Positions 3,769-60,800 of a stretch of 64,000 bases of DNA are shown in pieces. Within the stretch, counting starts at the first letter, position 1, and every line of letters begins with the position of its first letter. A program made the translations under genes and the position numbers. Source of the stretch: Ascidiella aspersa. Its lineage: Eukaryota. The notes beneath the pieces are model-generated. The model did not search any database and had not been told where the DNA came from. It saw only the letters and a program-made list of their open reading frames with translations. Location: the NCBI GenBank assembly GCA_963924565.1, contig OZ004608.1:16492001-16556000 (forward strand), given 5' to 3'.

Positions 3769-3863
3769 ATGTCTTCAAGTTTCTTGCATATTGGAGATGT
3801 TATATCATTATTTGCGGAAGGATCTGGCTCTGATTCTATCTGCGGATTTATCTCCACTCTTGG
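3769..3863 (+). CDS. ITPR: ITPR coding exon 1
   Basis: [18 protein letters not shown]...GFISTLG; GT donor. Confidence 0.93.
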
Positions 3864-15800: not shown

Positions 15801-18800
15801 TGACTAGAGAAACGCTGTTTTATGCGCATAGTGACTGCGCGACTTCTTGCACGAAACCTTAGTTTAGACAGCTTGATATTTTGTTGTGGGAACACACAAT
15901 AAGACCCCAAAAGCAACAATACCTAAAGCAAAAAATCTATAATACCATAGTATGAAGACCAACGACATATTAAAGTTAAAAACGCAGTAATTTCCACGAC
16001 AGAATAGGAAACGATATTGTCTGATTAAGATAATACACAGACTTGGACAACTAGATTTGTTTTAGCATTTTTTTTTTTGATGCCTTTTAGCATAGCATAT
16101 GCTTTTCAGACGGCGAAAATTACGTTTCAACCAAAGCGTTTGAATTCAAATTCTTTGTTTTGGTTAAGAGACTAAAGACTAAAAATGCCGTTGGACAAAG
16201 TAGCATTTTTGGTAAAATCCGAATTAGATTAGAACTAGAATTAGAGCGCACAAGCAATGCACAAATTAGATTAGAATTAGCTGCAATTTGCTATAATTCA
16301 TTGAATTAGAAAACTAGAATTATCTAGTTGTCCAAGTCTGGGACGATCGCGGACCATCGGTTTGGCATCGACCGTTTTGGTGTCGACGTTTTGGCGCCCT
16401 AGTTTGAACGGCCTCGTTAAGGCACCGCTGTTTTGGCACCGGATTTTTTATGATATTCTTATTTCTGGAGTCGTTTGTTATGTGGTATAAAACTATCCAA
16501 CAATCCTGTAGAATTGCGCCGATATTCGAAAGGTCATACTTCTGTTTAAGCTTCAAACATGTTTCACAGAATTTGGAAGCCTTTGTGTTCTCGTGTTATG
16601 TCCAAAAACAGCTATCACAAACACAAGTATTTTATTTATATGTTTTTAAAGCAGCTCTTTTTTCATATATTTCCATTTGAACACGGAAATCAATATTTGT
16701 ATTTTACATTCAAGGCCCTTTACAACACCAAGGTTCTTTCAATATCCTGGGCTTTATTGTTTATTTTGTTATTTAAACCTTTGAATACATAAAGACAAAT
16801 TTACCTTTATTAAATTTTGACCAGATTTCTCGACTACCTGGCCGATCTGTGCGTCACCAACAAGCAAGCGATACCGAAGACCCAGGAACTGATCTGCCGA
16901 AATATTTTAGCAGAAAAGAACAAAGACATTCTCATCGAGACGAAGTGAGCGACCCGGTGTTTTTTCAGCCCGGCGATAAAATATCGATTGCTTTTTTACA
17001 ACCGAAACCAACATGATTGGCTGTAAAACGTTACATTATATGGCTACGGCTACGCGCAGCGCGGAAAGATGGAATGACACCACGATGTCTGTAATTTTGT
17101 GTAACTGATACATTTCAGAGCAGTGATTCTCAAAAGTTTTTTTTCGAATTCCTCCCTTACAAGCCAAAATACTATTAATTCCTCTCCAGAAAAAACATAA
17201 GGTATTCTAGCTTTTTATTTATTACTTCGATATAATTTGGATGCATTAATCGTCTGAAAGTTCAGTTTGTTTGAACGTATAACGTAGGTATAGACTTAAT
17301 CTCATGTAAAATGCCTGCATTGGTTTATATTTCTTTAATGGCTGTATTTGTGAAGAAACAATAGACTAATATGTAACTATGAACAAATTATGGGCTTGGA
17401 TTATGGGCCTAATAGAGTCTAATAGACGTTTTGCAATACCAATCATTACAGTTAAATAAGCTATTTATTGCATTTAACCGATTAAATAACTTTTTTTGTC
17501 TATTTTTCTCCCCAATTCCTCCCTGGAACAAATTTCCTCCCCCAATTTAAAAATTCCTCCCAAAGTGAGCAACTTGGCACCTCTGTTCTAGAGACTAAGG
17601 AACATGTAAAACCATAAATATAAGTAATATTTGGATTGCGCGGCGTCTTTGCTCATTTCAATACCAGCTCCGGTTGTACTATACTTTTTATTACAATTGC
17701 AGGCAAAACAGTTAAAACGTCATGAACGGTAATACACAGCTGTGGCCTTACAATGCTGTCAACATAAGGCACTTAGTTAGCCGTGCTTGCTTGATACAAC
17801 GAACAGTAACTTTTGCTTGGACGGTAAGAGCGATGAAAGTGAATTTCAACAACCGATTGCCCGTACGTTTTCACGAATAAAAATGCCTTCAAGGCAATAC
17901 GAAACTGTTCAAGCAATACGACTCTCAAACCGTAGTTTTTCGCCTTAAACGCGCCCTGAAAGACGATTTTTTTGCAGAATGTGCAGCGACTTTACGCACG
18001 AGGACACGGTGGTGCTGATGTACGGTGATGGCAAGGCTGTGGAGCGCTGCATCCGCGAGCTCGCCTCTGCCAAAGAGACTGAGGACAAGAAGTGGCTTAA
18101 GTACTACAGGTGATTTTGACGCTTGATAATGAATTGCTAAGCCGAAAAGGTCGAATAAATCGACATCAATGTTGATTAAGACGTTTCGATACGAGCTTGT
18201 ATCATCTTTAGTTGAGGTGACTGACAAGTAATTTAAGCATTATATTACGTGGGACGCGATTGTTATTATTTCGGAGTTATATCGACGGTTTGTTGCAAGC
18301 CGATGATGAAATCCTAAATCTAAAGTCAACCGTGTTTATATCCACCTCCGGGATATTCGGGAACGAAAAATTCTTTTGTGTGTTGGTCACATTCAAATGT
18401 TATGTCACCATGCCTGTGCTTCCATACATTATTGCTTGCTGCTTTTTTGTTCGGGTAATGGACCCTTGGTAGCAGTAAAAGTAGCAGTAAAAATATAAGC
18501 CATAAAGACATATTTTTCTGTAAAGTAAACTACTGAAAAAATGTGTACTTTTAAATATCAGATCAGGTAAAGTAAATAATATCGCGTGCTCATAGTCATA
18601 CGGCTAAAATGTCGAGCATATCTAATCCATAATACAAACACCTTCACCAGTGTTTGTTAGGCCTAGTATGTCTTCCAGCTTACTAAAGCGCGTTTTTCCA
18701 ATTCCCTTTGGAGCGCAGGCATCAACTGGACTTGTTCAGCAAGATGTGCTTGGACCGCCAATACTTGGCCATCAACCCGATCTCGGTCGAACTCACCATC

Positions 18801-21800: not shown

Positions 21801-24800
21801 TAAAAACCCAATAAAAATCACTTTTTATCGAATCTTGAGGGTAAGTTTTGTAACTAAGAAATTTTCTAACAGTTTTTATCGTCATTATACTCATGTTTAT
21901 AAAATCTACACCTTTTCAAAAAATGTGCCGAGAATTGTGCAAAACAACCAAAAAGTTTGGTGCGATGTAATTTTAAGGATTTAACATTATTTATTTGCTT
22001 CGCTGTAGTGTTTTTTACTTAATATTTTTTGTTCAGGTGTCTATTTATTTACTTTTAATTGCATGTTAAAACATAAGACGATAGGAGGGAGTTTTTAACG
22101 TCTACCATGAGGTGAATTGAGGAAAAAATATTGGAAAAAACTTGTTTTACCACTTAGCTTTTGTCCAACGTAATAAGCGTTTTGTTAAGTTTACAAAAAG
22201 GCACGATTTAATCTATAATGTGAAATTAAACGGTACAACAGTAATGGCGTCGTTTACAAGTTAAATTTGTATTGCCACTATATTCGGCTATAAACCCTAG
22301 CATATATTCTGCGTGTTATGGTGCTTAAATATCTCTTGTTAAATTTTTTTATTATTTTGCTTGCCTCACAAAGGGGTACGACAGCTCAGAGTTTAGTTAC
22401 CATGTGAGTACTGTAGAATGCCTTGTAATTCGTTTGCACGCTTGTAAGGAAATGATGAGCCACTGTAGCATAAAAACGCTTTGTTGATGTTGCTGTAGCC
22501 TTAAATGTTTCTTACTTTTAAGTCGGTAACACTATGTATACTTCAAAAATCAAGAAAACAACAAAGCAAAATTATTTTCAAATTAAGTCATTAAGTTCAA
22601 TGTATAGGTCTAATGAAACATGGTGGTAATAAAATTGTTTTTTTTTGTATTGAAATTAGCAGCCACACCATCAACGTGAAATCGCAAAACCCACATTAAA
22701 ATGATTTGATGAGCTAGATTTTAGATACTAGATTACTACAATTTTATTTAGCCACATCGGAGTGTACTACGGGTCATTTTTGTTCACTATTTCCTCAATG
22801 GGATTTCGGTACCCACGACATTTTTGTTTTGGTAAATGTGTTTACACCGCTTAAAGTGTGTTGTTGCAAATCGATCACTCACAACTGCAAAGTTTGTTAT
22901 ATGCACAAACATCGATAAAAGTTCCTCAGATTTATAACCATCTACTTGAATCGAAAATGCCAGTTGTAAAAGCGCAAACTAATTTGGCGCTGTTTATTGT
23001 TGTATTTTGCATGCTTGTGAATAACACAACAATGTCGAAGGGATTTACGAACCCGAGTGAGAAACTCGGAGTTATCCTGGTTATCTTGTAGCATCCACCG
23101 CATAGCATGAGATTGCACATTTAATGGAAATAAAACTAGAACGCCATATTTTGTTAAAAGAAAAACAGATCCGGGATGTAATTAACTAACAGTCTTGCCA
23201 ACATTTGATGATGTTCTATTACCTGTTAAAAAGAGTTAAAATAACTCTTACACTCATTGGGTCATTTTATATTTCTGAGGTATTTCTCCAATTTATCCCA
23301 GGCTAACAGCATTACTTGCGAAATTCATTAAATATAATAACTAATAAACAATTTACTCAAAACTTGTTAGATCGTTCGGCAAGTGTTACTCAAGTTAACA
23401 AGAGCGCCTTCCTTTTGACACGAAACAATTCGCTACCCACTTATAATATACGTCCTAATCAAATGCAACGAAAAATTCTCAAATTAGCTTTCTTGTTTAC
23501 GGCTGACCGTGCGTAGGTGGTCAACTTGGCCCGGCACCTCATCTACTTCGGCTTCTACAGCTTCGCCGACCTGCTCAGTCTCACCCGCACCTTGCTGCAG
23601 ATACTTGACTGCGTGAACGGCGTGTCGGCCAACAACCTGCTGTCTCAGGGCCGCTTTCATCAGGGAGGCGGTAGTACGTTGAAGATTTTTTTATTCGTTG
23701 TTTTAAATTGTCTAATTGTGTGTTTCGACCAAGCGCGTCGAATCCTTCAAATACGTTACTGCATTTTACTATTAGGTTGTCATACCATTTCAATTAGGTT
23801 GATAACCGATGTTTGAATTTTCGGTAATTTTAATTCTAAACCAAGCGGAAAAAACTAAAATGCTTTAATTTTAGTTCTAATCTATTTAAAAAAAACTAAA
23901 ATGATCCTTTGTAATTTAATTTTTGCAAATTTGAAATTAATATTGTTTTTTTAAGTCTGTAAATGTATCGATATTTTGACTACCGTTCTCGTCTAGTCAT
24001 CGTTGATAAATTGTAGGACACCTTTCTAGTTCCTGTGAGTAGCATTATATATTTTCTTTTTTGTAGCGTTTGAATTATGTTTTCCATTTGACAGACGTAG
24101 ACGCAATCAGCCGTGGCGTAGGCAACATAGCGGTGATGGTGAGCACCTTGACAATGGGCAGCACCCTCGACCAACAGCCAGGTCGAGCCGGGAATCGAAC
24201 CGATAACCCTGCAGCCGCCGCACCGAGCTCCTCGATCAACGCGCAAGACGAGTACGTGCTGGAGACGAAGTTAAAGATCATCGATATTTTGCACGTGGGT
24301 CTTAAAAAATCATTTTTTTTCGTGGTCGTATACGTATTTAACAAATCTTCGTAGTAATGCCAGTACTGGTGCTAAATAATGCTGTAGCTATACTGAAGGT
24401 GCTAAATGATGCTCTAACTAAGGAAACTTAGACTTGAATCAATTGCGTCCCACCTTTTACAAGTGATGCTTGAATTACTTCTCAGTCTCATTAACTGAAG
24501 ATGATACAAACGTCTTATTCAAGATAATGTCTATCGACCGTTTTGGCTTTGCAATTTATTATCAAGCTACATTACAGATCCGTGCATAGCGTACCAAAAT
24601 ACCAGTAATCTTGTTTAAAAGATACTGAACTAAAATTGTCGATTGTTGCAAAATCTATTTCTTTTTTACTAGTTCATCCTGGACGTCAGGCTCGACTACC
24701 GCATCTCGAGCCTCCTCTCCATTTTCAAGCGAGAGTTCGACGAGAACAGCAAGCGGCAGCAAGTCGAGAGCCAGACCGCTCCCCCTACGGACGCTACCCA

Positions 24801-27800
24801 GGAACGAAACAACAACCTCGCCACTGGAGCGTCGCAAACTCAACGTAAGAAGAAGGGGTCTAGTCGAAGATTTAATGGCTGCCATTCATAGGCGCCGAAT
24901 GTGAATGTGCAGAGTGTTTTTAGACGCCCTGAACTTCTCGTAGGGCGTCAAAACGCGCTGTAATTCGACCAATTTATCAATAGATGTGCAAAAAAATGCA
25001 CAGTCTTAGTTCACCAAAAGTGTTTAAAACTTGCCTGAATTACCATATAGGCACGAGACCATAGTATCCAAAAAACTATGCATTTTTTTAATTATTGTTA
25101 CGTTCATTTCAATAGAATCGTTTTTATCCATATAGTTTTAAACGGCGAAATGGTTGGTTTATTGTCAACATACAACAGCTGGTATCTAAGAGCGTACATA
25201 TTAAATAATAATCAATTTTGCAGTGTCTTGGAAATAACGCCCTGGAACTATCGATATTAGTTGCGTTACGACCAATGTATTTAATCTTACGCAGCAACGA
25301 CGCCGCTCATCAACCTGAGCATCATTTCGGCCAAGGCGGAGGGCATTTTTGACGGTTCCCAGGAGAGCGTGAGCCTAGATCTGGATGGTGACGGAGGAAG
25401 GATGTTCCTTCGTGTGCTCCTCCACCTCGTCATGCACGACTATCCTCCTCTCGTGTCTGGAGCGCTCCAGCTGCTCTTCCGCCATTTCAGCCAAAGGCAG
25501 GAAGTCCTCCAAGCCTTTAAGAACGTAAGTCGATTTACTGTTTTGAGACTGCTTATGCTGGAATTAGTTTTGTGTTGTCTACTTTTAGTTAATATATTTT
25601 TAAAACCCACGTTTACGCCAAGGTGCACCTGCTTAATAGTTAAGATGCAATTGCACCAAGAAAAGTTTTTCAACTGGTTTTGGTTGTTTTGTATATATTT
25701 CTCCAGAGACCAAATTTTCACCAGGTCAGTGGTGACATCGAAAAATTCATTTTAAGTTATGCATGGCGTGGTTCAAACTCACGAAATTCTGTGCAGTCAA
25801 TATAGTTATATTGGTGTTTAATAGAAGTTTTGTCTTACCTTTTATGAAAAACATTATAAACACAGCAACTCTTATCTTTAAGTTTTTTCCAAGACTCGTT
25901 TCAAATTTATTTGAAGTACGATAAGCTGTGTTTACAATGTTTTTGGAGGTGTCAACTGTCAACTAAGTTGAACGTTACGCGCAAATTTCTTAAAACAAAC
26001 ATTTTTGCCTCTTTTGTATAAAAAGTTATTGTGCATGTTGCGCTATGGTGGCGTGTACATGCAGTAAATCCCTTAATCGAGTAAGCTTGGCAAGCAGGCA
26101 TATGCACATTCGAAACACCAATTTTTTTTTGGAAAGAGTTGGAATAAATAGTTTCGTTAATTAAAACATTATGGTATTAAGTTTCCCTAAAAAATCTAAT
26201 CCCGTCGCAAATAAACGTTTTAAAAAACTTGCCTTATTTTCCCCCTTTATTACGTCCAGGTCCAGCTTTTGGTCACCAAGGACGAGCACGAGACGTACAA
26301 GGAGATCAAGACCAACCTGGACCAGCTGCGCCTCCTGGTGGAGAAGAGCGAGCTGTGGGTGATCAAGGGCAAAGCGGCCAGCTCCTCCAAGCCCAGTCGC
26401 GATTCGACGTCACAGGACGTACCGGGCGACGCGCCAGGCGGCATCATGCCCATGGTGAGTTCGAGTTGCGCGTGATTTTCTCCGTGTTCTATTGAAAATA
26501 AATGATGGGTCACCTTGGTCAGCGGTTCAACTCTTTTAAGTCGCTGATTTCTGGTTTAGTGGCGACTTTATACAAGAAAATGCGTATGCCCAAGTTAAGG
26601 CTAGTGAGTAATCTTGCAAAGTTGGTCTGTATGATTCAAGAAATCACGATGCAAAAATTGCTATCTTAATTTGAAACATGCTATATTTGCTTTGTATATA
26701 TTTTTTTAATTAAATAACCACCTTCACCATCTACATCGCGTGTTTTGTGGCCGCAATAATATGTCAACGTCTTAATTCAAAAACAGCAGAGGCGGGCAGA
26801 ATTTGCACCAATATACGTTCCTGTGGCATTTATTTTAATGTCTGTGTTAGCTTGGTGGTAAAAATGTGAAATACAACAATTAAATCACTATGCGACACAG
26901 CTCATAACTACATATTTTGTCTCTTAGCTTTTATTGCCTTTAAATTTTTCACTTTTATTTTTTAACTACGTTATCTATATTAGTTTGTGTTTGGTAAATT
27001 GTGGCCTGATTATTGCCTTATTTGGTGCATGTTTCAAACCTTATTTTGTGAACAGATTTAAATTGTTTACTTTTTAAGTTTTTGTATTTAAGGTCAAAAG
27101 TAGATTTGATTGATTTCTTTATTTAAAAAATAAATTTCTGTTGAAATTAAATCGATAAAAGTTGTCTTGGAACATGAATCTTTCAATGTATGTTTTACGT
27201 TTTCGACCAATCGCGACTCCCCGGCCCTCCATATCCACTTATACACGCAGGGTGACTTTTGCATTTTGCCTCCGAAACACCTGCGTTCGCGACTGGGCAA
27301 CAACAAACCTAGCGTGAGTATTGTACATAGCAGTCGCACTTGCGACACTGACTGCCGTCCCAGCTCACCAATCTACGTTTGCACCTAATTCGCGCCAAAA
27401 ACGATTCCATTTGTGCAGCATATTTTATGCATGAGGGGCTTGAGGGCGCCTACGACCGTAGACCGCGCGTGTGCATCTCGTAATTTTCCAATCAAGGAAT
27501 AAATTGTTCTACGGTTGTTTTGGGATATAACGTAAATAGAGACAATAGAATGTCGTAAATAGTGTTCGGAAGGTCTCTAAATATTTTCAAATTTATTTCA
27601 ATTTGTTTGCTTGAATTTCAATCATGCCTGTCGATTGATGTTTTACTTTTGTGTTCTTCATATGCCTGGGTGTTTTAACGTACTAACCAAGCTGGGGTTA
27701 AGAAAGCAAAACTCTACTTTTTAGAATAATCATTTTCGTAGCGTACTGACGTAAAATTCGATTTTTAATTTGTCTTGATTTTTGTGATTCGGTGGCAAAT

Positions 27801-30800
27801 CAATTGACATGTTGTAGAGGTTTCGTCTCAATTGACATGTTGTAGAGGTTTTCGTCTCTTCGATATATTGAAAACAATTTTACAACTGATTAAAACTGTT
27901 GTGAACTAACTTGACTGATTTACGGATTTAACTGCCCCCATTAAGTTCTATCTAAAAAAAAACTCTTTTTTCGCGTTTATTGCTATACAGAAGACCCATC
28001 CTTAGTTTTAGTTAAATTTTAGAGAACTTTAGACAAACTAACTTAGACTCAACTCTATCTGATTGGTAAAACACGGTGATTGATAAACATGAAAAATATT
28101 ATTAATTGTGGTAAACAACCCTTTTCTTGAAGTATCTTTACAAATAGCGATTTACCAAGCAATTCACTACCGTTGTCAAGTAATTGAACTTTTTAAAAAT
28201 GTAAATACGAACACGTTATAGAAGCAAAGCGAATATGAACTTGTGTGTATTAAAGTTCTCTGGTCGCGAGGAGAGCGTGGACTACACTAACAACTCTGGA
28301 GACCGCCTGTCAATCAACAGCTCGTCCTTCAAGAACTACGACACCATTAAGCGGGTACTTAAAAATACGGCAAAAATCGGTTTGCGTTTCACTCGGTGTG
28401 TTTTTGTGTAAGACCTTTGCTAAGTCTTGTCGTAACAATTCCCTGTAAAATTACAAAGCAAGTGTGGAAAGCCGAAACCTAAGCCACAGTTTAGTTCATA
28501 ACAACGAGAATCCCCGTCAGATTTTTATTTTTGTAACCTGCCAGTTTTAACAAACTTGCTTGTTACTATATTTTATTAACAACTAATATAATGAAAGGCG
28601 GTTTAATAACTGTTTTGCTTGCTGCTGGCTGCTTAGCATAAGCTTCATTTAACTTGCGCCACATTTGCACTATTTCACTAGTTTTGTTATTTGTTTTAAA
28701 AAAAAACTAATGCGATTACGTTTTCATGCTATTAGTTTTTTAATTGCGCTTCTGTCGCTATAAGAAACAAACGTTCAATCCATTAAACGCAGTAAAACGT
28801 ATTAATTTAGGCTATAATAAAGTTTTGCAGTTTTTCCACCTGGCTTAAATTGCTTGAGTTCATATAACTCCGCCTGTGAACATGGAGACTCCTTTATTGC
28901 TCCCGCCTCTCTCTGTTGGTCGATATTTTGTCATCTAACGGGCTTCAATAACAAGCCGCTTGTTTTTAACATCGCGCTTTCGTTTTTGTGTAGGTATCTA
29001 TTTCCCGTTACCTCCTATGTTCGGCTTCTGCAAAAGCCTGAGTGAGACGTATAAATAAAACAAAGCTATTTTACTTAACGAAGTTCGATTTCATTGTTCC
29101 GTTGCTGTCCCAAATAAAAAAAACTAGGTTGAGGTACAAATTATTTTACAGGAAGAGTATTTTTACAGGAAAAATAATCCGACAGCGCAAAGCACGAAAA
29201 TTTAATATCGTTGTAAAACTAATGGTATACACGAACGCAGTTTTTTCCAATATATAATATAGCATAAGGTGTAATGCTAGCTCTCTTTCTCAGATTCTTA
29301 GAAAGCTGACGTCACTGTGTGTTTCCGGGGAAAAGAGTCACCCCTGCAAGGAGCAGCAACGACTTTTAAGGAACATGGACGCCCATAGCGCAGTGCTGGA
29401 TTTGCTGCAGGTAGTACCGTTCGAACTGGACAATAACATAATAAACATTGCCGTCGTTTTTGCTGAGCCTCGCCAGGGTTTATCATTATGAACTTTTTAA
29501 CCCGCACATAGCGTGGTAATCGAATCCAACTAATCGTGAAGTCACTTGAAATACTATCCTTCCTCGCATATGCGGATCGCAAATCTCGTGTTCTTATTCT
29601 TTCTTGCGCATCGCCAGATCTCTTACGATCGCAACACAGACCCGCACATGCAGGGCATCATGCAATTCGCGCACAAGTTTCTGCAGGTCTTCTGCAAGGG
29701 GAACCCCCAGAACCAGGTGCTACTGCACAAGAACCTTCAACTTTTCATGACACCCGGGGTAAGTCGGAGTTGACATATTAACATTCTCCTTTAACCTCAT
29801 GTGAACATCTGAGAGAATTTGGGTTTGTAACAGTAACACGTATCTGAGGGTTATTTTATTCAATGCTACATGGTGTTATGAAATCAGTCCACATCGTGAG
29901 TTGTTCCTAATTGTTTTGTTGTGCTGTCTTTATCAGTTGCTGGAAGCGCAGACAATGCAAGCGATCTTTCAAGACAACGTGTCACTGTGCAACGAAGTTA
30001 CTCACACGGTTATTCAGCACTTCGTCAACTGCATCGGTAAGTTTTCTAAACTGACGTTATTCTGTGTTTTAAGGTAGGTTTGGCTATCCTCTTAACTTCA
30101 AGGGTTTGCTTTGTTAAATTTTCTTTCAAAAAATCCCGGCAGTAATGTATTAACTAAAATGACACATTGTAGTTTTTTGCGATAACATACAGTAACTAGC
30201 TTGATAATAAATTGCAAGGCCAAAAAGGTCAAGTAGATCGACATCATCTTGATTGAGACGTTTCGATACGAGCTTGTATCATCTTCAGTTAATGTGACTG
30301 AGAAGCAATTCAAGCATCACTTATAAGAGATGGGACGCAATTAACGGGGGTCAAAGAACATAGGGTCGATGAAAAATCAGAGGTTTGCAGGCATCTTCTG
30401 CAACATTCCGAGCATAAGGTTGATTTTTGCAAGCCCGAAGTTCTCGGATGGGCTTCAGACGTTTTTAAATTGCGGCTACTCGAGTCGCTATCTATACAAG
30501 ACTGCAGCGCCGAACTAAACGTCGACACCTTATCAACACCGCTGTACCTGTTGAACACCTGAAAGTGCTAAATTATGCTCCTACTTTCGAAACTTACACT
30601 TATAACAATTGCGTCTCATGTCTTATAAGTGATGCTTGAATTGCTTCTCAGTCACATTAATTGAAGATGATACAAGCTCGTATCGAAACGTCTTAATCAA
30701 GATGATGTCGATCTACTCGACCTTTTTGGCCTTGCAATTTATTATCAAGCTACATTACCGATCCGTGCATAGTGTACCACATACAGTAACTAATTAACTT

Positions 30801-42800: not shown

Positions 42801-45800
42801 TATAGCGTCACTTGGTATATGTAGTTACAATATCACCTGCAATCTCGTTGCGGTTCCGATCAGATTATATATGACACCACGAACTACATGTAAACAATTG
42901 GTCAAAGATCACATTATTTAGCAACTAAAAGCTGCCGTGGCTAGATACGCGTCTTTTTTAATAAACACACGATGCATTTTTCAGTCACGGGGTAAAAAAT
43001 TGCCCCTTTCCAAGTCGCAACATTTTTTTCCTTTTCTTTAGAAGTTATCATCATAGCTATAAGAAAGATTAGCAGTTAACCAAAAGGTCGAAATACATGG
43101 GCAGTGTGCTACAACTTTTTTGTGCTCCTTGCAGCATCTTCCGGAGGACTGAGCTTTCGCTGGAGGAAGTCCAATGCCATCTGAAGACCGAGGGTGCCGC
43201 GGATCTCGTGATTAACCTCATCATCGGCAACTACAGCGAGAAGATCTTTCACGAGAGCGTCCTCCTTGGCATCGCGCTGCTGGAGGGCGGAAACCATGAC
43301 AACCAGGTAACCGGCGACATTTTTCGAGATGAACACGCACACACACACACACACACACGCATAAAGCTGCGATTGAAAAGTTGAAACGTTAAAAGTACAA
43401 CGAACACATACTATGAATGTTTTTTTATTACAATAAAAAAATTGCCAGCTAAACTTGATTTGCCAAGTAAACAAGCGTCAAGTGTGTTACAAAAATAAAT
43501 TATGCCTAAAAGACGCTCTTCATGATCAAACGTCTAGAAAATAAAATGTTGTTCACGAATAAAACTCGAAGTTAAAATTATTCTATTCTATTTTGACATT
43601 TCATTTATTTCGAAATCAGCGGATTAACACCCATACATTAGGCTGAAACCTGGGAAACTTCTTTGTATTTAGAAAAGGTAGAATGATTTTTTTTTTAATT
43701 TAACAAGTTGGTAGTATTTTTTTATCATGTTTTTTTTACTTTCAGACAGATTGTAAAATATAATATCTGCTTTTCAGATGGCTTTCTTCAACCAACTAAT
43801 TGGCGAAAAAGGATCCGAGGATTTCTTCCAAGTTTTTCACGAAAAGATGGAATGCGCTCAAGTAGAACTGAAAAACTCCTCCACTGTCAACGCAGGTTCC
43901 TCGTTTTCTTCCTTTATTGTTTGACACCATTGGGGACAATTTTGAAACGATTATAACAATGTCCGATCTAATATCGCGTCTTCTTCCAGTCAGATTTATT
44001 TTCCGAAACGGCAACTTAATAACGTTGTGGTTAGGACTATTCGATACTTAGTATTTTAATGTGGGAACTAAACCTGGTATTTAGGTTAAACTATTTGATT
44101 TGATCTGATACAAATTCTACTTTATGTTTATTACTTATTCCAAATTAGAAAAGTAGTTGGAATTAGGTCAGGTGAAGTTTATTTAAAACTTTTATAGTGG
44201 TATAATTACATTTAACTGCTAGTAATTAATTGCATGAGGTAGTAAACAACTCAACGTATGAATCTATGATTGATATCTTCCCAGGCCAAGGTCTTTGTGA
44301 TGGACCGCGTATAGCTATAAAATGTAACTTGAGTAAAATTTTGGTCGGCGCAGTTTCCAACCTCATGCCAGATTAGTTAAAATGATAGCATCTGTTGATT
44401 TTTCCAGGAGAGCTACTAACTCGCGCCGTTGATCCAAGCTCCAGTATGAGCCAGGACGGCTTCGAAGGCGGAGTCGGCAGTCTACGAAAGGTATTATGAG
44501 TCTCATTTAATGTATATGCTGTTGGCACAGACTGAACCTAAAGAAACTCTTTGCATCTGTAAAAAATGTCACGTAATGTTGCCTTGTCCACGCGGCGCTG
44601 CTTTGCATTAGATCACCTTTTCAGATAGCCATAGTTTTATTCTGACAGCCTTATGTTTTGATTTTAAACTTTTTACTTAATCTATAGTGATTTCATATGT
44701 TTTTGACTTTTTTATGATTTTTATTATTCGTTTGCTATGTATATGTATTTTACTTTACTTATAGGAACTGACGATGCCAGTATAGGCGAAATATATATTC
44801 CTTTAAAAATGTCTGATCCTGGTTAACTTTGAATTTTATTGTTTATTGTTTCCTCTCATATGCTTCAGTTGTCAAGTCAGCTTACCGAGGAGCTTTCGGA
44901 CGCAGCCAGCCAGACACGCAAGGCGATACAGAACGTACAGAAGCCACACGTTGCTGCCAAATCCGCCACCGAAGCGCAGGGTACCAACACTGCCGGTAAC
45001 AAAGGCGCAAAATTCAACTTTTAATGGTATAAAAAAGAAGTTTTCAGTTTCTTAATGCCATTTTTGTCGTGACTAGGTGGCGAGGGCGATCGCAGAGACG
45101 ACGAAAAGGCGATCAGTCCGGTGATCAGCATCATGAAGCCGATTCTACGACTGCTGCAACTGCTCTGCGAGAACCACAACGCTCAGCTGCAGGTCGGTTT
45201 TATTTTTTTCCATATTTTCGTCATACCACACAAAGAAGACTGTAAAGCTTATGCTCTACGTTGTGTCTAGTTAGTCTCGGGCCCATGAAAGCCTAATGTC
45301 CTTTAATCATGGAATAAATGCACTTGCTTTATACAAATTTAACAAATCAGTCTTTAATTTCAATTCACTTAGTCCGTCAAGGTATATTTTGTATTAAATG
45401 TCACTACATTCGTCGAGATAATTTCTCGGTTTTCGTTTTATGAATGCGTTCCTATTACTTGACAAAAATACGCTGGGCATAACCTGGCTAAATATTGGAC
45501 TAAAATTAACCTTGAGTAAACCTGCAAGTGTGCTTTATTCGTTATACGATAGAATGTTTGTTTTTCAACTTAACGCCCTTTAGGGAAATTGCAAAATCTA
45601 TGCACCTGACATATCACATTAGTTACTTGCCTAAAAGTATTTGACAGACACTTGATGAATTTGGCCGCCCATCCAAGAAGAAGCTGACCCCTCGTACATA
45701 TAAAGCAACACAATAATTGCCACAGTGACAGGTTTATCCAATCTTGTCAAAATAGGATAACAAAATGATCCAATATTCTACTTTAAACATCTTCACTGAT

Positions 45801-48800
45801 GAGACAAAGAATCTGTCAGAAAAAAGTTCAAAACGTAAAAGAAAGGTTGCAGTTATAATAAAAAACACAAATGTAGATAAATTGAAAAAAGTAACAGTTT
45901 GGTTTTACAATCTAGCTAAAGAGTTGCCCGTGGTTCCCCAATGACCGCTCCGTGGCCCCCAGGGGGGGCGAGGGCCACGGTTAAGAAACCCTGGCCTAAT
46001 TGAATTTTTAGTAACGTAAATTTTGTATTACACCAAATGGAATTTTATACTTGATTTTTGCTTACCACAGAAATTCCTGCGCTGTCAGCCGAACAAGAAC
46101 AGCTACAACCTGGTGTGCGACACCCTCATGTTCCTCGACTGCATTTGCGGCAGCACCACCGGCGGACTCGGGCTGCTCGGCCTGTACATCAACGAGCATA
46201 ACGTCGAGCTCGTCAATCAGACCCTGGAGAGCTTGACCGAATATTGTCAGGGGCCGTGCCATGAGAATCAGGTGTTTAGCCAAATCATAGCTAGTCTATT
46301 TTTTACATCGAATTGTGCATTATTTGCCGTTTTTTAATTGTTTCGTGTTAAAAGGGTTTTATAACATTTTTGGTTATTTGTTTAATTGACGGAAAACGTT
46401 AAAAAGACTAGGGTACTGTTTTCTGCTTTGATTATTTCGCATAGTAAAAAAAAGTAAAAAAAAAATCTGTCACGACAAAACTTAAAAGAACGGTTTTTGC
46501 CGAGGTTTACACGTGTTTTATTTTTTCGTCTATTGTATAAGTTACTTTGTTATTTAATTTGGAAGTTTTGTTCTTTCGCAGAACGCGATCGCCAGTCACG
46601 AGTCGAACGGCATAGACATTATAATCGCGTTGATTTTGAACGACGTTAACCCGCTGGGAAGGCAGAGGATGGACCTCGTAATGCAACTCAAGGTGGGACA
46701 TTTTTTTAAACTTCTATAGTAAATGACTCCCAAATAGAATGCTGAAAAAAACTTGCTATTAAGTTCTGACGATAAGGTTTTAACCGACTGTAGATATTTT
46801 TTCTATTTAAAAGTTGTATAGATAAGTTGAATGTTTTTACAAACTGCGCCTCTTAATGAACCGAACAACTTTTTATTTGTTGGGTAGCGAGGTGTTTTAA
46901 GTTTTTGTTGGTTATCTATTGCTATGTTTTAACTCACAGAACAACGCGAGCAAGTTGCTACTCGCCATCATGGAGAGCCGACACGATTCGGAGAACGCTG
47001 AACGAATTTTACGCAACATCAACCCAACGCAGCTGGTGTCGGTCATCGAGCAAGCCTACACTAAGGTGTGTGTGGCCCGCTTTACTGCAGTAAAATCGAA
47101 AAGATTCATTTTTCTTGTTCGGTTTGGCTATTATATTCGTTCGTGGGAGGGTCTTTGGGTGTTTTTTCTGCGTCAACTATGTCTGACATGTTTTCTCTAG
47201 AGCAGGGGCAGTTGGGTCCGTAGACCCCCTGAAAGTACGTGGACTAGTTTTGGGGGTTCATTAAGGCCTCCTAGAAACCTTATTGTATAGTGTTTTCCCC
47301 CCATAAAATGGGATTAATTAGAAAACACTTTTTGCCCGATCTTTGAATGTATTTAAACCAGACTTAGTTGTACGTTTGCGTATGAATTTGACCATAAACC
47401 CAATTCTAGAGACTGCCATCTTTATATGAAAAAATACACATGAACTGGTAGTCAACAGAATGATTACTTTCATTGGAATTAAAATATACTATCGATGCCT
47501 TTGTTGGCGAAGTATATATCTTTACGATCTTTTAATAGTGTCTGACCTGAATTGCTAGATTTGCTAGAGTATTCTGCTATTGCTGATCAGTAGGGCGATT
47601 ATTTTTTGACCACAAAATTGGAATTTTTGACAAATTTAGCCGAAAAATAATTAATTGTGACAAAATTTTGACCTATTGAAAATACATTGATTTAAATAAC
47701 CTATGTTGTTTAACGTACTGCATTAGTGTTTTGGCGTCGTCAATCACACGTTTTTGATGTTTTACTGATTACCGGTCGAAGACAAATCAGTTATTTTTCG
47801 GGTTAATGCGAAACTCATGAAAATACTCAATTGATATTTTTGTCATTTTAAAAAGACAAACAACTATAAAAATGCCAAATTAGAAAAATGTACGCACAGT
47901 TTTTGAAATAGGAAATAGGCAATTGCAAATCACAAGCGAAAAAAAGACAGCAAATACTGTTCAATACATTTGTCCAAATCAGAGAGGCCTCGGTGGTTAA
48001 TTCTTCTCGCATATACCATATTTTGCTCTAATGAAGATATAGTACAATTAAAATGTCGTTAACTATAAATCGAAACTACATTTTTTTGATAAAATTGAAC
48101 GACAAATTTCACAAAAACTATGAACGACCATTACAAAAAGCTGACTTATAATTTTTTTTTTCAGTTTATAAAGAATTTATGTACATTTTTATTCGATTCT
48201 GACTTTTTTTAATTTTGACAAACTTTGGCCTAACTTGTAAATTTTAACAAAATTTTTTTTTTTTTTTTTTTTTTTTTATAAGTCAAAAAATAATCGCCCT
48301 ACTGATCAGGAATTAGATCGACATTTATCTTGCCAAAGGGCCAAGGTGATTTCCATTATCACATATTCAGCGCTACATATAACGTGGTGGTATGCGGATT
48401 AACAAAAACACTAACTCATCTGGATAATAAATTGCAAAGCCAAAAAGGTCGAGCAAATCGACAGCATCTTGATTAAGACGTTTCGATACGAGCTTGTATC
48501 ATTTTCAGTTAATGTGACTGAGAAGCAATTCAAGCATCACTTATAAGAGAAGGGACGCAATTGTTATCAGCTAAATTACAGCTCCGTGCATAGTGTACCC
48601 AACTAACTCATCTAATTGCTAAAAATAAAACGATTTTTCGTGAAAAGGGTCAACGAATGGCAGAAGAGGAAGGCCTGGCTGATGGCGAGGGTTTGTCCGG
48701 CCTTGACTCGGACGGCGATGACCCGTCCCAACTGGACATGACCGGGGACGGGTCACCCCGCGCCGTTGGCCACAATATCTATATCCTAGCCCACCAGCTG

Positions 48801-54800: not shown

Positions 54801-57800
54801 ATATTTATTATTTCCACATTTACAAAAATAAAATAATGCGAAATAGGCCGAACAGATGTTAAGTTAGGAAACCATGACTTAAGTCAGTTTGTTATTGTGA
54901 TCTGTTGTGATCTGTCACGGTCATACATGCTAACTTGTTAAATATTTGACGAATCGATAGACGCAATCGCACATAAAACAACCGTTCAGTGCTTTAAAAT
55001 AACAATACCTCTCTCAACAACATATCATCACATCAACATAAATGGCTTAAGCTATAACTTTGCAAGAATGCATCGAATTAAACACGTCTAACAATCAACG
55101 TGTTAAAATATCAAGTGTTTAATCGTCAACATGTTTAAAATCGTTAATTGTGCTTAAAATATCCCAATATTCGTTGTTAAACACGTCAAAATATCAGGTG
55201 TTTAGCATAAAATCGTTCAGGTGTTTAGAATTTAAACATCAAAATTCAAATTAAACACAAAGGTGTTTAAATTAGGTGTTTAAGTGTTTAGAATTTAAAC
55301 GTGCTTAGACCGTTTTGGTGTTTAAATTTAAACACCGTTCTGACAGTGTAGCATTATCGAGACTGGCAAACCCGTTTCAGACTTGGCGAGAAAACATGAT
55401 GGAATGCGATCTGGTCATGCTTCTCATACAACTGGTTTGCTAGAATCATGCTTAAACAGAAAACATACGTTTAAATATTATGTGTCATTAATTTCTCGCG
55501 GTTGTTGGATCTACTAGGTTAACAGTTAATAATTTCTATACCAATTAACAAATTAACATTTTTGTTGCCAGAAAATGTCTGCCTCCTACACCAGCGGTCT
55601 CCAACCTATTGGTCGCCTAAACCTTTTATTGGGTCGCCAACACTCACCAATTCCTGTAGCGTTTAGTGATAAACCGCGCAATGAGTGTAATAAAAATGTT
55701 TAAACAAATAAAACCGAATCTAAACTTGTATAATAGTTTAAGCATAGCCAATCGCTTGTTTTATTTAGTTCAAGCATAACTTATCTAAAGCAAACTGGGG
55801 TCTTATTATACAGCTTCTAAATCGCTTCATTTACCTGCTGAGCTACATCGGGAATAAAGGGATGAAGGACAAGGGGATAATTCGGGTGCTCACCGAGACG
55901 CAGTTCATCCTGCACGTCCTCCACATCTTCTTCTGCTTCCTGGGTCTCTTCTGGGATGAGCTGTGCTACAGCATCCTGGTAATTGTTCTTTCGTCTTCGT
56001 TGTGCTACTAAGTCTCGCCTGCTAAGCAATAGGCATAACAATATAACATTCATAAAAACATGGCACAAAAAATGTATTGTTCCTAAACCTCATTGAATGG
56101 ACTTATCATTTTAAAATATTCTATAGTGGTGATTTTTTTAATATGATTTACCAATTACTGATGTATTGCAAGCACATTCAAAACTGTTTAACTATGTGTC
56201 CAATGTTCATTGTTCATGCTGGTTACAATATACATGAAATTCAAGACTTTTCGTTTAAGGTAAAGGACTATGATTTCAACTTTATATCAATTCGCTGTAA
56301 AGTATCCAGTTAAGCCATACACTTTTTTACATTGTTTAGTTGTTTGACCTGATCTACGGCGAAGAAACCTTGCTGAACGTGATTCGAAGCGTCACTCGCA
56401 ATGTGCGATCTCTATTGTTGACGGCAATGCTGGCCATTATACTCGTCTACATGTTCAGGTTGTTTTGCAGTTTCAACTTTATTCTGGTAACCCAAAGGAA
56501 ATTTCAGAACAGTGTTTTTTTCGTTTTAAACTTTTGCCATCTTTAAAAAGGTAAATATTGAACAAAATCATCTTCGATAAAAACAGAGTTTTTCGTTTCT
56601 ATTGTCGGCTTCTGTTTGTTTAACCTAATATGCGAAATTAATAGCTGTAGTTTTGGCGATTATTCAGTCACGTTTTTTTTTGTAAATGCTATTCACTCAG
56701 TTCTGAAATAAGTGTTTTTATTGCTTTAGGTTTGTTCAGGTGTAATTTTACAACCGTAAACGACTCGCAAAGCGTTCATAATAATCATCCAAGTCTGGAC
56801 AAGTCATTCGGCCATGTTTGTTTTCCGCTAACGACGTCCGCCCGTTGTTTTTCGCCGCAGCATCGTGGGCTACCTGTTCCTAAAGCAGGACTTCAAGGTC
56901 AGCGTGAACCCCAAGTGCGTGATCGACGATCCGGAGCGGCTGAGTATGCTGCGAGAGAAGCTGGACACGCAGATGAGAAACTCACAGGTTTGCAACCAGG
57001 ACGACGGAAGCTGCAATAACACGGGTACGAGTTAACTCCGCACATACTGTTACAATCCCTTTAATTCCAAAGCATATTTGTTCGGTACAGTAACAAGTTA
57101 AGCTATGTTAATTAGCGGTGCATTGTACAGTGTAAATTTTGATTAGCTGTTTATTAACTATGTATAATTTTTAGAATGACGTCACAAAGTTACGTAATAA
57201 AACAATTAATGCTAAAAACATCTGACGTGTCAAAGCGATGTCTTTCACAAATATGTATAGATGGAATACATGCTAATCTCGCGTAGCGCGAAAAACATGG
57301 CGTTTATTTGTTTAAATTTGTAAAACTACAACCAAAAGATTACGTGACGTATGAGGCATGGCGCAACATGACATAGTCTGCAAGCGCTTTCGAGCTAAAT
57401 AGATTTTCTTAAATCGTAAAACATAATAAAAACCTTTTTTTGTATTTAACTCAAAGTAGAGTTTATTTGTGTTTTCACTTTGCTTTTTTTGATAAATAAA
57501 GCTCAATTATAGTGATGGTAATTTGATATTTTCTTTTCTTTATGTACTGTAATTAAGATATGTTTTGGAGCATATTGGTTGGAAGTAGCAGTAAGACGTA
57601 GTAAAAATATCAAAGCTCATATAGAAGTAGGTAGCATTTTGAACGTTTCGAACATCTCTATGTTCATTTTAACAAACCTGTTCTCTCGTTAGTACTGCAC
57701 AATTTATCTTTACATTTAAACAATTTCGCAGCTTCCATTTTGCTAATTGCCTGAAAAACTACTTTGTCCTAAACGCGTATTTAAAGCTTATACTCTCTAA

Positions 57801-60800
57801 TAAACAGTGAACAACCTGTGGACGATGCCGGGCAACCACTCGCAGCAGTCCAACTCGCAGCGGGAACTCAACGAGTCGGCGCGAGTCAGCGACGAGATGC
57901 TGCAGCGATTCCTGTGCGACGGAAGCGAGTCGGTGGAGGAGAACCACTGCGAGTCCCTCCTCATGTGCATCATCACAACGCTCAACGAGGGACTGAGGAA
58001 CGGTGGAGGGATCGGTGACATCCTGCGCAAGCCCTCACAGTCGGTACGCGACCCCCAATCGATAAAACATTTGTGGCTTAATTAGGACTGACGCTAAATG
58101 CCGGTGTTGACTGTTGATTTTGGTATTTGTGCAGATCCGCTGGAAGTTCTTGGTGATTTTAGACATGGTTTGCGGTTTATAAATCGGCTTATGTTTCCTT
58201 GAAAGGTTTTTTTTCTGATATTTTATCTTAAAAGGTTGTTTAGTTTTTGGATCTAAAGCGAATTTTGGCTTAACAACGTGCAAAATATTTTGTTTCAAGT
58301 TTATCAGTATTGCTTTTTATCTATAAACGCCATTTAGGTATCGAATGGGACAGACTTAAATCCTAAATATCGTAACAATAGCCTACTGCCCTACACAATT
58401 AACTATCGTTGTCGGAAATTAACCTGAAGTCGGAAAACGGGTGTAGAGTGCGTCACAAAAACAGTTAGGTGCGTCACTAAAGATAGTCAGGTGCGTCACA
58501 ATGCCCTCAAGGGGCGGAAGTGGGGCGACTGAAGGCTTTAAAACAAGACTGATCAAGTGCGGGAAATTTGCGTGAATAAACCCGTTCACGCCTGTAAACC
58601 TGTTACTACTGCGTCGAAGAATGTTTGCAAATAGCAGGAAATGTGTGTGATACTTCGGTCGTTTTTAAACAGTGTTTGTAAGTTAACAAAACACTCGCCA
58701 TTTTATTACGAAAGGTGACCTATTCTGTATTACGTATTTTATAATTTAAAAGCCGGTAATTCGTGGTCTTTGATCACAAAATCATACTGAGTACGCCTTA
58801 CTTGTCTGATTAAAATATAAATGTTTTTTATGAGGACGATTACATCGAAAATTCCACTTTAGATGGGTTAAACAGTACATAAAAAATGTTTGACTGCTTA
58901 ATAGATCACGTATAAATGAAAGCCAACGTTTTTTACAACAATAAACTAAAAAAGAAAAAAGAAAAAAAAAGAGTTTTTTGAGCTGCATCGCACGCACTGA
59001 CGCACGTATATAGACCTAAAAAATATTCTTAATCGTTCATATTATTATTTTCATTATAATACTCATTTGTTAACTATTTTGTTTTACATTTAATTTCTGC
59101 TTTGTTAAGGAAATAGTATACTGAACTCCTCACCAATATAAGGATTTAAATAAATAAATAAAAATACTTGGATACGTTATTCTAGATTTAAAACATACTA
59201 TCTGGAATACCTCAGAATCTTTCTTTAAACATCCCCGACTATAACCCTAGCAGTTATTTAGAGATTGCAACCTATTGGTTTGTTTCGTTGGCAAAAGGTG
59301 TTAATTTGCCGTTTAATGCTGTGTACAAAACGCGTTGTAATACATTTTTTTGTAAACAAAACCTCAAAAATTTTGTACCGCCTACTTGAACAATTTTATA
59401 CTGTTCCAATTGTTCCCACTAAATTTCTGCAAGTTTTTCCACTTGTTTTCATAAGAAAGAAGGGTATTAATAATAAATTGCAAAGCCAAAAAGGTCGAGT
59501 AGATCGACATCATCTTGATTAAGACGTTTCGATACGAGTTTATATCATCTTCAGTTAATGTGACTGAGAAGCAATTCAAGCATTAGTTATAAGAGATGGG
59601 ACGCAATTGTTATCATTGTAAGTTCCGAAAGGAAGAGCATAATCAAGATGATGTCGATCTACTCGACCTTTTTGGCTTTGCAATTTATTATTAAGCTACT
59701 TTACCGATCCGTGCATAGTGTACCCAAGAAGGGTATTGTTTAGCATAAATCGCTGTTAATTCCCCTAGCACAGTAGTTCCCAGCCTTTTTTGTTCTGTGC
59801 ACCCTTTTAGTCGATATTCAAATCTAACTCCTCCCTACAAATTTAGTTTACAAAAATATCGTTTACATTAAAATTTTTTGTAATTTTCAGAAATTTAAAA
59901 CTGTAGTTTTGTTCTTTCTTTCTTTGTACATTCCCTTTCTGCATTTTCGAAATTTCTTTGTACATTCCCTTTCTGCATTGCTGCCTTGAATCGATTTAAT
60001 TATAGGAGAGCTTATTTTTTCTAAGCTCACATATGTCAAACGCAGGAATAACACATAGCACAGACAACCAGTAAGAGAATAATATTGTGACACAAATTCC
60101 CACCTACAAATTACAAAATTCCCCCTAGTGGGGAACCCCCCCCCCCCCTGATTGGGAACCACTGCCCTAGGACACTCTTGTGGTTATCAGACCCGGAAAT
60201 TAAGTTCAAACAAGATCATTTGATTTGTTAGTCAGGACCAGACCGTGCCCAATATCACGCGTCGTGAGGTGAAGCAAATCGTTCGTATGGTTGGCATAAC
60301 ACCTTTTTTCTACACAGGAGGGCTTTCTGTTCGTGGGCCGCGTCGTCTACGACCTGCTCTTCTTCTTCATTCTGATCATCATCGTCCTCAACCTCATTTT
60401 CGGCGTGATCATCGACACCTTCGCCGATCTGAGGTCGGAGAAGCAACAGAAGGACGACATCCTCAAGAACACCTGCTTTATTTGCGGTACGACTTGTCCT
60501 TTGCCACTTTTCTCGACACGGCAAATAACCGGTTATTATCGCCTATCAATAATAATCCTTACGTCATTCAAAATTCCAACCATATTGATTGCACAAAGAC
60601 GAGCAACGATGCCGACTGTGCCTTTGTTGACTGCAGGCCGCTAAATATTGTGACCCTTTTTTGAAGTTGTGTCTTTAGAAGTGGGCAGTATAAACGAATG
60701 TAAACGCCATGTTTATACTGCAATTGTTGTTCTATAATATGCTTGGTAATGACAGTTATACAATTTAAAAAATCGATTTTTAACTTACCAAAATTGGATG

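Follow-up and report, generated by a model that had tools for sequence, protein, structure and literature searches.

Several introns of an ITPR gene in the window, that is, in the whole stretch of 64,000 nucleotides analysed here, carry repeats with a hammerhead motif. The question is what these repeats are copies of, and whether the ribozyme takes part in the copying. Both the motif and the class of element are already known, and the window is mostly ordinary mobile DNA. We consider it probable, taking the explanation as a whole, that the repeats are decaying, 5′-truncated 3′ stubs of a Penelope/Poseidon-type element (family A), that its RT–endonuclease likely produced the insertions by priming at each of the two nicked strands, with capped RNA that had not been cleaved as the template, and that the copies in ITPR are passengers.

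Copies in the ITPR gene and their Penelope-like origin

The host gene was traced by tblastn at 3775–63236 as 47 exon blocks, all on the plus strand; named ITPR matches were only about 60–68% identical to it. None of the 47 blocks overlaps any repeat, which bears out the intronic location proposed in the first-pass annotation, and all seven repeat arms were recovered at the five sites where it had placed them, with 80–97% identity to the locus at 30199. At this locus an exact 14-bp TSD (30185–30198 and 30779–30792) encloses an inverted pLTR arm with a tail-less end (30199–30342, minus strand), the end of a PLE ORF (30345–30565, plus strand), consisting of the final 72 codons and stop of the C-terminal half of a GIY-YIG endonuclease, and a direct pLTR (30566–30778, plus strand) with a tail at about 30749–30778. 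The hammerhead of the inverted arm (30252–30293) keeps its core intact but has a single mismatch in stem I. The direct pLTR contains, all on the plus strand, a TATA-like box at 30624, a putative RNA start at 30654, a hammerhead with a C3U change (30656–30697, predicted cut before 30693) and an ORF start of 26 codons from the ATG at 30702.

The arm at 18121–18266 (minus strand, hammerhead G5A) is a single pLTR arm with a tail-less end, whose first base lies 11 nt inside the intron; a TSD was searched for at this site and none was found. The sense arm with tail at 24393–24595 (plus strand) has lost the 3′ strand of stem II and the GAAA box to a 17-nt deletion, and is flanked by a probable 10-bp TSD with one mismatch (24356–24365 and 24598–24607). 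At the fourth site an inverted arm with a G8A hammerhead (48422–48570, minus strand) is partnered by a direct, tail-only arm of 33 nt (48569–48601) within an exact 12-bp TSD (48410–48421 and 48602–48613). The last site, likewise with an exact 12-bp TSD (59457–59468 and 59726–59737), combines an inverted arm (59469–59643, minus strand) with a direct arm (59640–59725, plus strand) that begins 3′ of the ribozyme and so has a tail but no hammerhead. The inverted arm holds the window's only fully intact minimal hammerhead of family A (59518–59559, minus strand), antisense to ITPR, with a predicted cut between 59523 and 59522. The clean 12–14-bp duplications claimed earlier are thus exact at three of the five sites, and the hammerhead consensus proposed with them is retained in both core and stem I by the 59469 arm, the others being damaged. 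The window also contains the decayed remains of a pLTR stub from sister PLE family B (57564–57674, minus strand) and an intact minimal hammerhead of family H (44761–44805, plus strand, sense to ITPR) within a repeat of about 200 bp (44640–44847); the family-H hammerhead had escaped the first-pass annotation.

The attribution to Penelope-like elements was upheld by RT and GIY-YIG relatives elsewhere in the genome. Family-A copies outside the window (L022, L027 and L028) carry the RT motifs DKG and YVDD, and relatives match RVT_1 of Pfam with E values of 2.5e-9 and 1.2e-7; a PDB sequence search with the RT piece returned nothing significant. Pfam left the EN half unrecognised; among 95 homologs found for the sister ORF, 3 carry PF01541. 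The GIY-YIG motif, VVY..YIGQT, can be read in genomic relatives of the window arm, two of which (L003 and L012) run on from it into the same tail as the window's, the CCHH endonuclease being C-terminal in the same ORF. Of the GIY-YIG tail announced for the 30199 locus, the window itself holds only the final 72 residues, the motif being read in the genomic relatives. Over these 72 codons the identity with the C-terminal end of an 848-aa intact sister ORF is 54% (E 9e-23), and the 26 pLTR codons align with the N-terminus of the sister ORF with a score of 48, which none of 500 shuffles reached. The pLTR overlaps the ORF start, and an optional tail, an inverted 5′-truncated arm and a short TSD are all present. 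In translations inspected by eye, the zinc-finger linker between RT and EN is absent; according to PMC8557442, this extra linker is absent in Penelope/Poseidon and present in Neptune/Nematis. The assignment to Penelope/Poseidon rests on the protein motifs, the absence of the linker and the pLTR architecture, the nearest homologs bearing no family names.

A genome search for a complete RT and EN element had been suggested as a check. Relatives of both parts were found, but 5′ walking, protein searches (97 of 433 candidates scored) and the pattern of a tail running into an ORF (20 of 39 loci read) yielded fragments and no full-length family-A copy, whereas intact sister ORFs of 843–848 aa are present. 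The longest open family-A pieces measure 433 and 419 aa, and one locus (L437) extends about 110 nt into the ORF. The recent activity suggested earlier is less well supported than it was made out to be: the genomic sequences that match the EN-bearing arm best are 83–93% identical to it, the core is intact in 49 of 85 sampled family-A copies and no intact ORF was found. At the three sites covered (18121, 24441 and 30199), contigs of two other runs cross into the repeats, and no empty-site allele appeared among the 15 joints listed out of 434. Family A is young yet looks non-autonomous in the present assembly.

The minimal hammerhead and its conservation

Across the 308.6-Mb genome the 42-nt motif of the first-pass annotation is matched exactly 97 times, never within the window (reversed control, 0), and a 26-nt 3′ anchor is matched 326 times. 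Searches of the window for hammerheads gave a divided answer: a minimal-hammerhead descriptor found two matches, against 0.05 per random 64 kb in 60 Markov sequences, but an Rfam scan produced no hammerhead model at E ≤ 10. The claim of a minimal type I hammerhead in the pLTR is nevertheless well founded, since core boxes, stem features and palindrome fit the published min-HHR. The CUGANGA and GAAA boxes, the NUH triplet and the C3–G8 pair together form the majority state in family A, and the extra nucleotide after A9, the G10.1–C11.1 pair and a palindromic, loopless stem III are present as well.

Seven PLE families in the genome retain a minimal hammerhead with compensatory changes, and the catalytic core and the palindrome are conserved in every one. 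In their alignment 87.8% of 49 cells are paired, six of the seven pairs show double changes, including C3–G8 to U3–A8, and covariation, which supports helices I and II, reaches 0.653 against 0.237 after shuffling, a value drawn from few sequences, inflated by relatedness and obtained with a structure derived from the same sequences. Within family A, heritable variation in 85 copies spares the core, stem II and the palindrome, while the outer pairs of stem I vary without compensation. With this caveat on covariation, the pattern of substitutions argues for selection on the hammerhead. The predicted energy of the dimer is weak (−4.1 kcal/mol), and a non-hammerhead dimer is favoured. Cleavage as dimers, listed as known in the first-pass annotation, is a weaker point for these copies. 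Because paired arms lie on opposite strands, no transcript of the window sites would carry two sense ribozymes, and the ribozyme is predicted to cut solely as a dimer or with the help of protein. Dimer cleavage is reportedly the finding of Lunse et al.

Ends of the arms and the template RNA

In the genome-wide sample, which comprised the first listed matches, mostly on contigs C1–C4, 57 of 89 insertions are head-to-head, and 50 of these 57 pair a tail-bearing with a tail-less end, one long and one short. The 3′ ends are bimodal: of 99 arms, 45 stop at the tail-less end, whereas 50 reach the end of the tail. TSDs of at least 8 bp (n = 36) range from 8 to 15 bp, with a median of 11, and are 73% AT.

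The 5′ ends bear on the template. In family A, 9 of 99 arms begin at a single base, whereas downstream positions average 0.7 each (corrected p 3e-6). This base coincides with a TATA/Inr start just upstream of the ribozyme, where the RNA would be expected to begin; 37 of the 99 arms extend upstream of it. An extra G precedes the start in 12 of 31 cases as compared with 5 of 40 controls, a modest difference (p 0.036), and several of these cases could stem from palindromic or partner-arm microhomology. In family B two neighbouring start positions account for 16 of 52 arms, 11 of the 16 having a preceding G (p 6e-4), and its RNA reads and contigs have loose ends at the start base whose last loose letter is G (86 reads, 19 contigs). 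No clear start pile was seen among 55 arms of family C. Loose ends at 30656, 2 nt inside the putative start, were excluded from this support. Among the papers listed and the passages available, none describes untemplated G residues, piling at the start site or twin priming for PLEs, though subscription papers and supplements may do so.

At the cut site, by contrast, lie none of the 99 family-A arms and one true arm of family B; no peak appeared there in any of three families, and RNA reads neither begin nor end in a pile at the cut. A pile hinted at by arm 59640 and by the joints did not hold up: about 34 arms remained from 96 after removal of 48 indel copies, 7 upstream starts and 7 copies with indels or judged ambiguous by eye, and 6 of them fell within one base of the cut against 6.4 expected. 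Loose ends at L099:597, also considered as cleavage products, still have the ribozyme sequence attached and reflect a GUC/GUU variant. Ends are slightly in excess 1–3 nt past the cut, where 11 of 34 fall (p 0.04, uncorrected); the excess is seen at joints too and is ascribed to stem I microhomology, trimmed cleaved RNA being the alternative. Since the 5′ ends pile at the start and not at the cut, the template RNA was likely capped and uncleaved.

Insertion might then proceed as follows. The pLTR promoter would start the RNA 2 nt upstream of stem I, so that the ribozyme occupies the 5′ UTR. The protein would nick the two strands about 11 bp apart, and cDNA synthesis would start internally at two points some 30 nt from each other, corresponding to the two observed 3′ ends. 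Synthesis templated by the RNA's 5′ pLTR would run off at the cap after 95–125 nt, leaving short, promoterless stubs, and the two cDNAs would be joined through microhomology. The ribozyme would likely be dispensable for template production.

The proposal of Cervera and de la Peña, in which the ribozyme, as a dimer, cuts the precursor RNA and the cleaved or re-circularised product then serves as template, appears unlikely here. Conservation of the core and palindrome across all families speaks for it, as do the small surplus of ends just past the cut and the tandem array of one sister family, and a religated circle could yield the arms that extend upstream of the start. A linear RNA copied from its 3′ pLTR accounts for those arms equally well, however, and the arms that end at the start retain a whole, uncut ribozyme, quite apart from the missing cut-site peak and read pile. 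We give still less credence to non-autonomous SINE- or retrozyme-like stubs that a sister PLE protein would amplify from short RNAs of their own. Short copies do occur in hundreds, intact sister ORFs are present and the searches found none of family A; but the window lacks a tandem ribozyme array, same-strand pairs among the 97 exact matches are all at least 4.2 kb apart, 5′ ends pass continuously into EN and RT sequence, and stubs beginning at +1 lack the TATA-like box.

It is scarcely credible that the copies were co-opted to control ITPR pre-mRNA through self-cleavage or dsRNA formation, even if one gene holds five sites, two of them no more than about 35 nt from splice sites, and head-to-head arms could form hairpins in the pre-mRNA. 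Two of the seven arms, 59469 and 30199, have an intact core and both are antisense, whereas the three sense arms are all broken; the ITPR copies have decayed like the rest of family A, and repeat reads come evenly from both strands, 90% of them continuing into unrelated sequence.

Double priming from both nicks on capped, uncut RNA might be taken a step further, to a tentative and rather doubtful role for the cap-proximal hammerhead as a pairing device and off-switch instead of a template processor. The palindrome would hold two RNAs in the dimeric protein complex (the two arms often copy one and the same 5′ stretch), and cleavage would strip the cap. If so, the thousands of solo min-HHR stubs in animals would be products of run-off over the mRNA's first ~120 nt, and a fossil map of PLE promoters.

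Comparison with known systems

Min-HHRs were described in the pLTRs of metazoan PLEs by Cervera and de la Peña in 2014 (PMC4209133), and that paper shows the same type I core, helix III without a loop, extra nucleotide between 9 and 10.1, G10.1–C11.1 pair, palindromic 15.2–16.2 and helix I of 4–5 bp; the U3–A8 core variant recurs here in family B. Their copies, too, are mainly single and dispersed, with opposite-strand pairs 100–700 bp apart. Helix II differs, with 5 bp here and 7–8 bp in Schistosoma, and the 5′-end footprint of the stubs argues against their cleaved and circularised template. Run-off copying would account for most min-HHRs being short solo copies. Non-LTR retrozymes (bioRxiv 10.64898/2026.07.22.740005) share the type I hammerhead and an origin from PLE pLTRs, but form tandem arrays. 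The present copies are scattered, lie head-to-head and merge gradually into coding sequence, and no head-to-tail array of hammerhead-bearing units occurs in the window or among the 97 exact matches.

The inverted 5′-truncated arm, the 30–40-bp tail at a single end, the TSDs of 8–10 bp and the TATA and Inr-like motifs in the pLTR all have counterparts in Adineta vaga and other EN+ PLEs (PMC3846280 and PMC8557442). These papers favour self-priming or EN resolution, in contrast to the pairing of long and short ends seen here, which fits two-nick priming; in PMC8557442 the role of PLE hammerheads is still considered open. A biochemical parallel is PAc, the Poseidon element of Anolis carolinensis (Frangieh et al. 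2024; PMC11167929), with an RT followed by a C-terminal GIY-YIG, a pLTR overlapping the ORF start, AT-rich targets and two ends about 30 nt apart that match two internal RT starts. Its ORF starts at stem II. The corresponding ATG of family A leads into a frame of 9 codons ending within stem I, and the N-terminal homology sets in 9 nt past the predicted cut; in sister families B and C both ATGs share a frame. Intact sister elements in this genome are possible substrates for direct testing. In PAc the template is uncleaved and RNA reads do not end at the cut; reads likewise have no ends there in the present genome, and by the footprint its template would be uncleaved too. The in vitro data agree with an uncleaved template, for which the genomic footprint provides support in vivo.

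Family A copies in ITPR introns

All seven arms placed in ITPR introns by the first-pass annotation were found, and the setting itself was borne out: ITPR lies on the plus strand, with Pfam MIR and Ion_trans matches, homologs named ITPR and agreeing stranded RNA reads. The repeats overlap none of its 47 exon blocks, all plus-strand (0/47). RNA reads matching the repeats come from both strands, the majority continuing into other sequence, and nothing points to an effect of the inserts on ITPR. Arm 18121(−) begins 11 nt past a 5′ splice site (18110–18121), and at 48422(−) a branch-point-like ACTAAC, lying some 30 nt 5′ of a 3′ splice site, has been doubled by the target site duplication (TSD; 48410–48421/48602–48613).

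Only arm 59469(−) keeps the whole hammerhead motif; in 30199(−) the core is intact but stem I carries a mismatch. These two intact cores lie antisense to ITPR. The remaining arms carry C3U (30607(+), 30566–30778), G8A (48422), G5A (18121) or a 17-nt loss (24441(+), 24393–24595), and 59640(+) starts 3′ of the ribozyme. Genome-wide (308.6 Mb, 75 contigs), a 42-nt family-A motif has 97 exact matches (reversed control, 0) and the 3′ anchor 326. The clean 12–14 bp TSDs were exact at three sites (14, 12 and 12 bp), but degraded (10 bp) at 24441 and absent at 18121. Since paired arms are 97–100% alike and these TSDs exact, the inserts are young, although family A looks non-autonomous in this assembly. 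At 18121, 24441 and 30199, contigs from two other runs reach into the repeats. Further inverted-repeat, MITE-like or high-copy repeats lie at 24883–24929 (read depth high)/40431–40477, 8724–9096, 47579–48313 and 7800–8603, and an unrelated non-LTR reverse transcriptase fragment at 1030–1356(−) (RVT_1, E 1e-6).

Element identity and hammerhead motif

The endonuclease (EN) tail plus pLTR at 30345–30778 is 83–93% identical to genomic copies, and its relatives extend into a GIY-YIG motif and carry an RT with DKG and YVDD (Pfam RVT_1), confirming both the endonuclease call and the link to a PLE RT. No full-length RT+EN element of family A was found among the 97 of 433 candidates scored and 20 of 39 loci read. 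Sister families have direct pLTRs and intact 815–848 aa ORFs (intact or near-intact in three families, at loci L099, L100, L101–L103 (G000:C9:23.485–23.495 Mb), L094 and L291); one forms a 2671-bp tandem array, and RNA depth inside these ORFs is very low. The window's EN tail is 54% identical to one intact sister ORF, to whose N-terminus 26 codons at the family-A pLTR end align. No zinc-finger linker is visible in family A; judged by sequence, this fits Penelope/Poseidon, for which linker absence is a criterion in PMC8557442.

A loopless type I hammerhead descriptor gave two matches in the window versus 0.05 per random 64 kb; an Rfam hammerhead search of the window gave none. Seven PLE families carry the motif directly 3′ of the ORF stop. 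Each has a single additional base following A9, a G10.1–C11.1 pair and a loopless palindromic stem III, features also listed for min-HHRs in PMC4209133. In the seven-family alignment 87.8% of cells are paired and 6/7 pairs show double changes, including C3–G8 to U3–A8; the covariation score is 0.653 versus 0.237 shuffled and ≤0.252 in slid controls, the set being small and related. Shape and covariation together uphold the minimal hammerhead. Among 85 family-A copies, shared variants are confined to the outer part of stem I and to loop II, with none in the core, which is intact in 49.

In family A, a 9-codon frame opens within 30667–30704 at an ATG made up of A9, the additional U and G10.1, and closes in stem I; in two sister families, B and C, this ATG is in frame with the ORF. 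The family-B core is U3–A8, and a decayed family-B stub lies at 57564–57674(−). A second repeat family, at 44640–44847(+), has an intact minimal hammerhead sense to ITPR (6-nt palindromic stem III, AUA triplet, 5-bp stem I) and stops about 20 nt short of an exon; it has 893 first-look candidates genome-wide, one copy (locus L416) lying upstream of a decayed PLE RT match.

Start site versus predicted cut

The first 100 of the 326 anchor matches yielded 99 unique arms, whose 5′ ends pile up at the base equivalent to 30654 (9/99 versus 0.7 per base downstream), within an Inr-like motif, 30 nt past a TATA-like box and 2 nt before stem I, both motifs being called from the sequence by their usual consensus. 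Of 31 family-A start arms, 12 are preceded by a G not present in the reference (p 0.036; control, 5/40). A reverse-transcribed cap is known to leave an additional G at full-length 5′ ends. The pile replicates more strongly in family B (1873 exact genome matches), where 16/52 arms start at two positions 30–32 nt past a TATA box, 11 of these 16 with a preceding G; three further arms, at another position, are identical duplicates. Family-B RNA reads and contigs have loose ends at the same start base, with G as last letter. Family C (55 arms) shows a diffuse cluster only.

At the predicted cut no family-A arm begins (0/99), a test on about 34 family-A arms gave 6 versus 6.4 expected, family B has just one true arm, and RNA read ends form no pile. 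A slight excess of ends 1–3 nt past the cut (11/34) may stem from stem I microhomology. Given the start pile with its extra G and no cut-site peak, the RNA that was copied likely had its cap and had not been cut, and short stubs would be run-off copies of the RNA's first 95–125 nt. Most transcribed family-B copies have GUU, not GUC, as cleavage triplet (L099:596).

Insertion architecture and known systems

Arm 3′ ends cluster at two positions some 30 nt apart: of the 99 sampled arms, 45 stop at the tail-less end and 50 at the tail-bearing end. Head-to-head layouts make up 57/89 insertions, and 50 of the 57 pair one of each end; TSDs of at least 8 bp flank 36 of the 89 (median 11, 73% AT). As described in PMC11167929, the Poseidon protein of Anolis carolinensis nicks and extends both DNA strands, and its cDNA begins at two internal sites, which define the tail. 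Priming here probably proceeds likewise from both nicks, each at a different internal site, the two cDNAs then being joined through microhomology. The simplest example of this scheme is site 48422, where an inverted arm faces a direct arm reduced to the tail. Because arms overlap in most head-to-head pairs, two RNAs or strand displacement would be needed.

Among the literature listings and passages surveyed on PLEs, we found no report of 5′ ends piling at a start site with an additional G, or of long and short end pairing; the class of element, its motif, the tail and the inverted arrangement have all been published. Predicted folding of the motif yields stem II only and the predicted hammerhead dimer is weak, in agreement with the low min-HHR activity described in PMC4209133.
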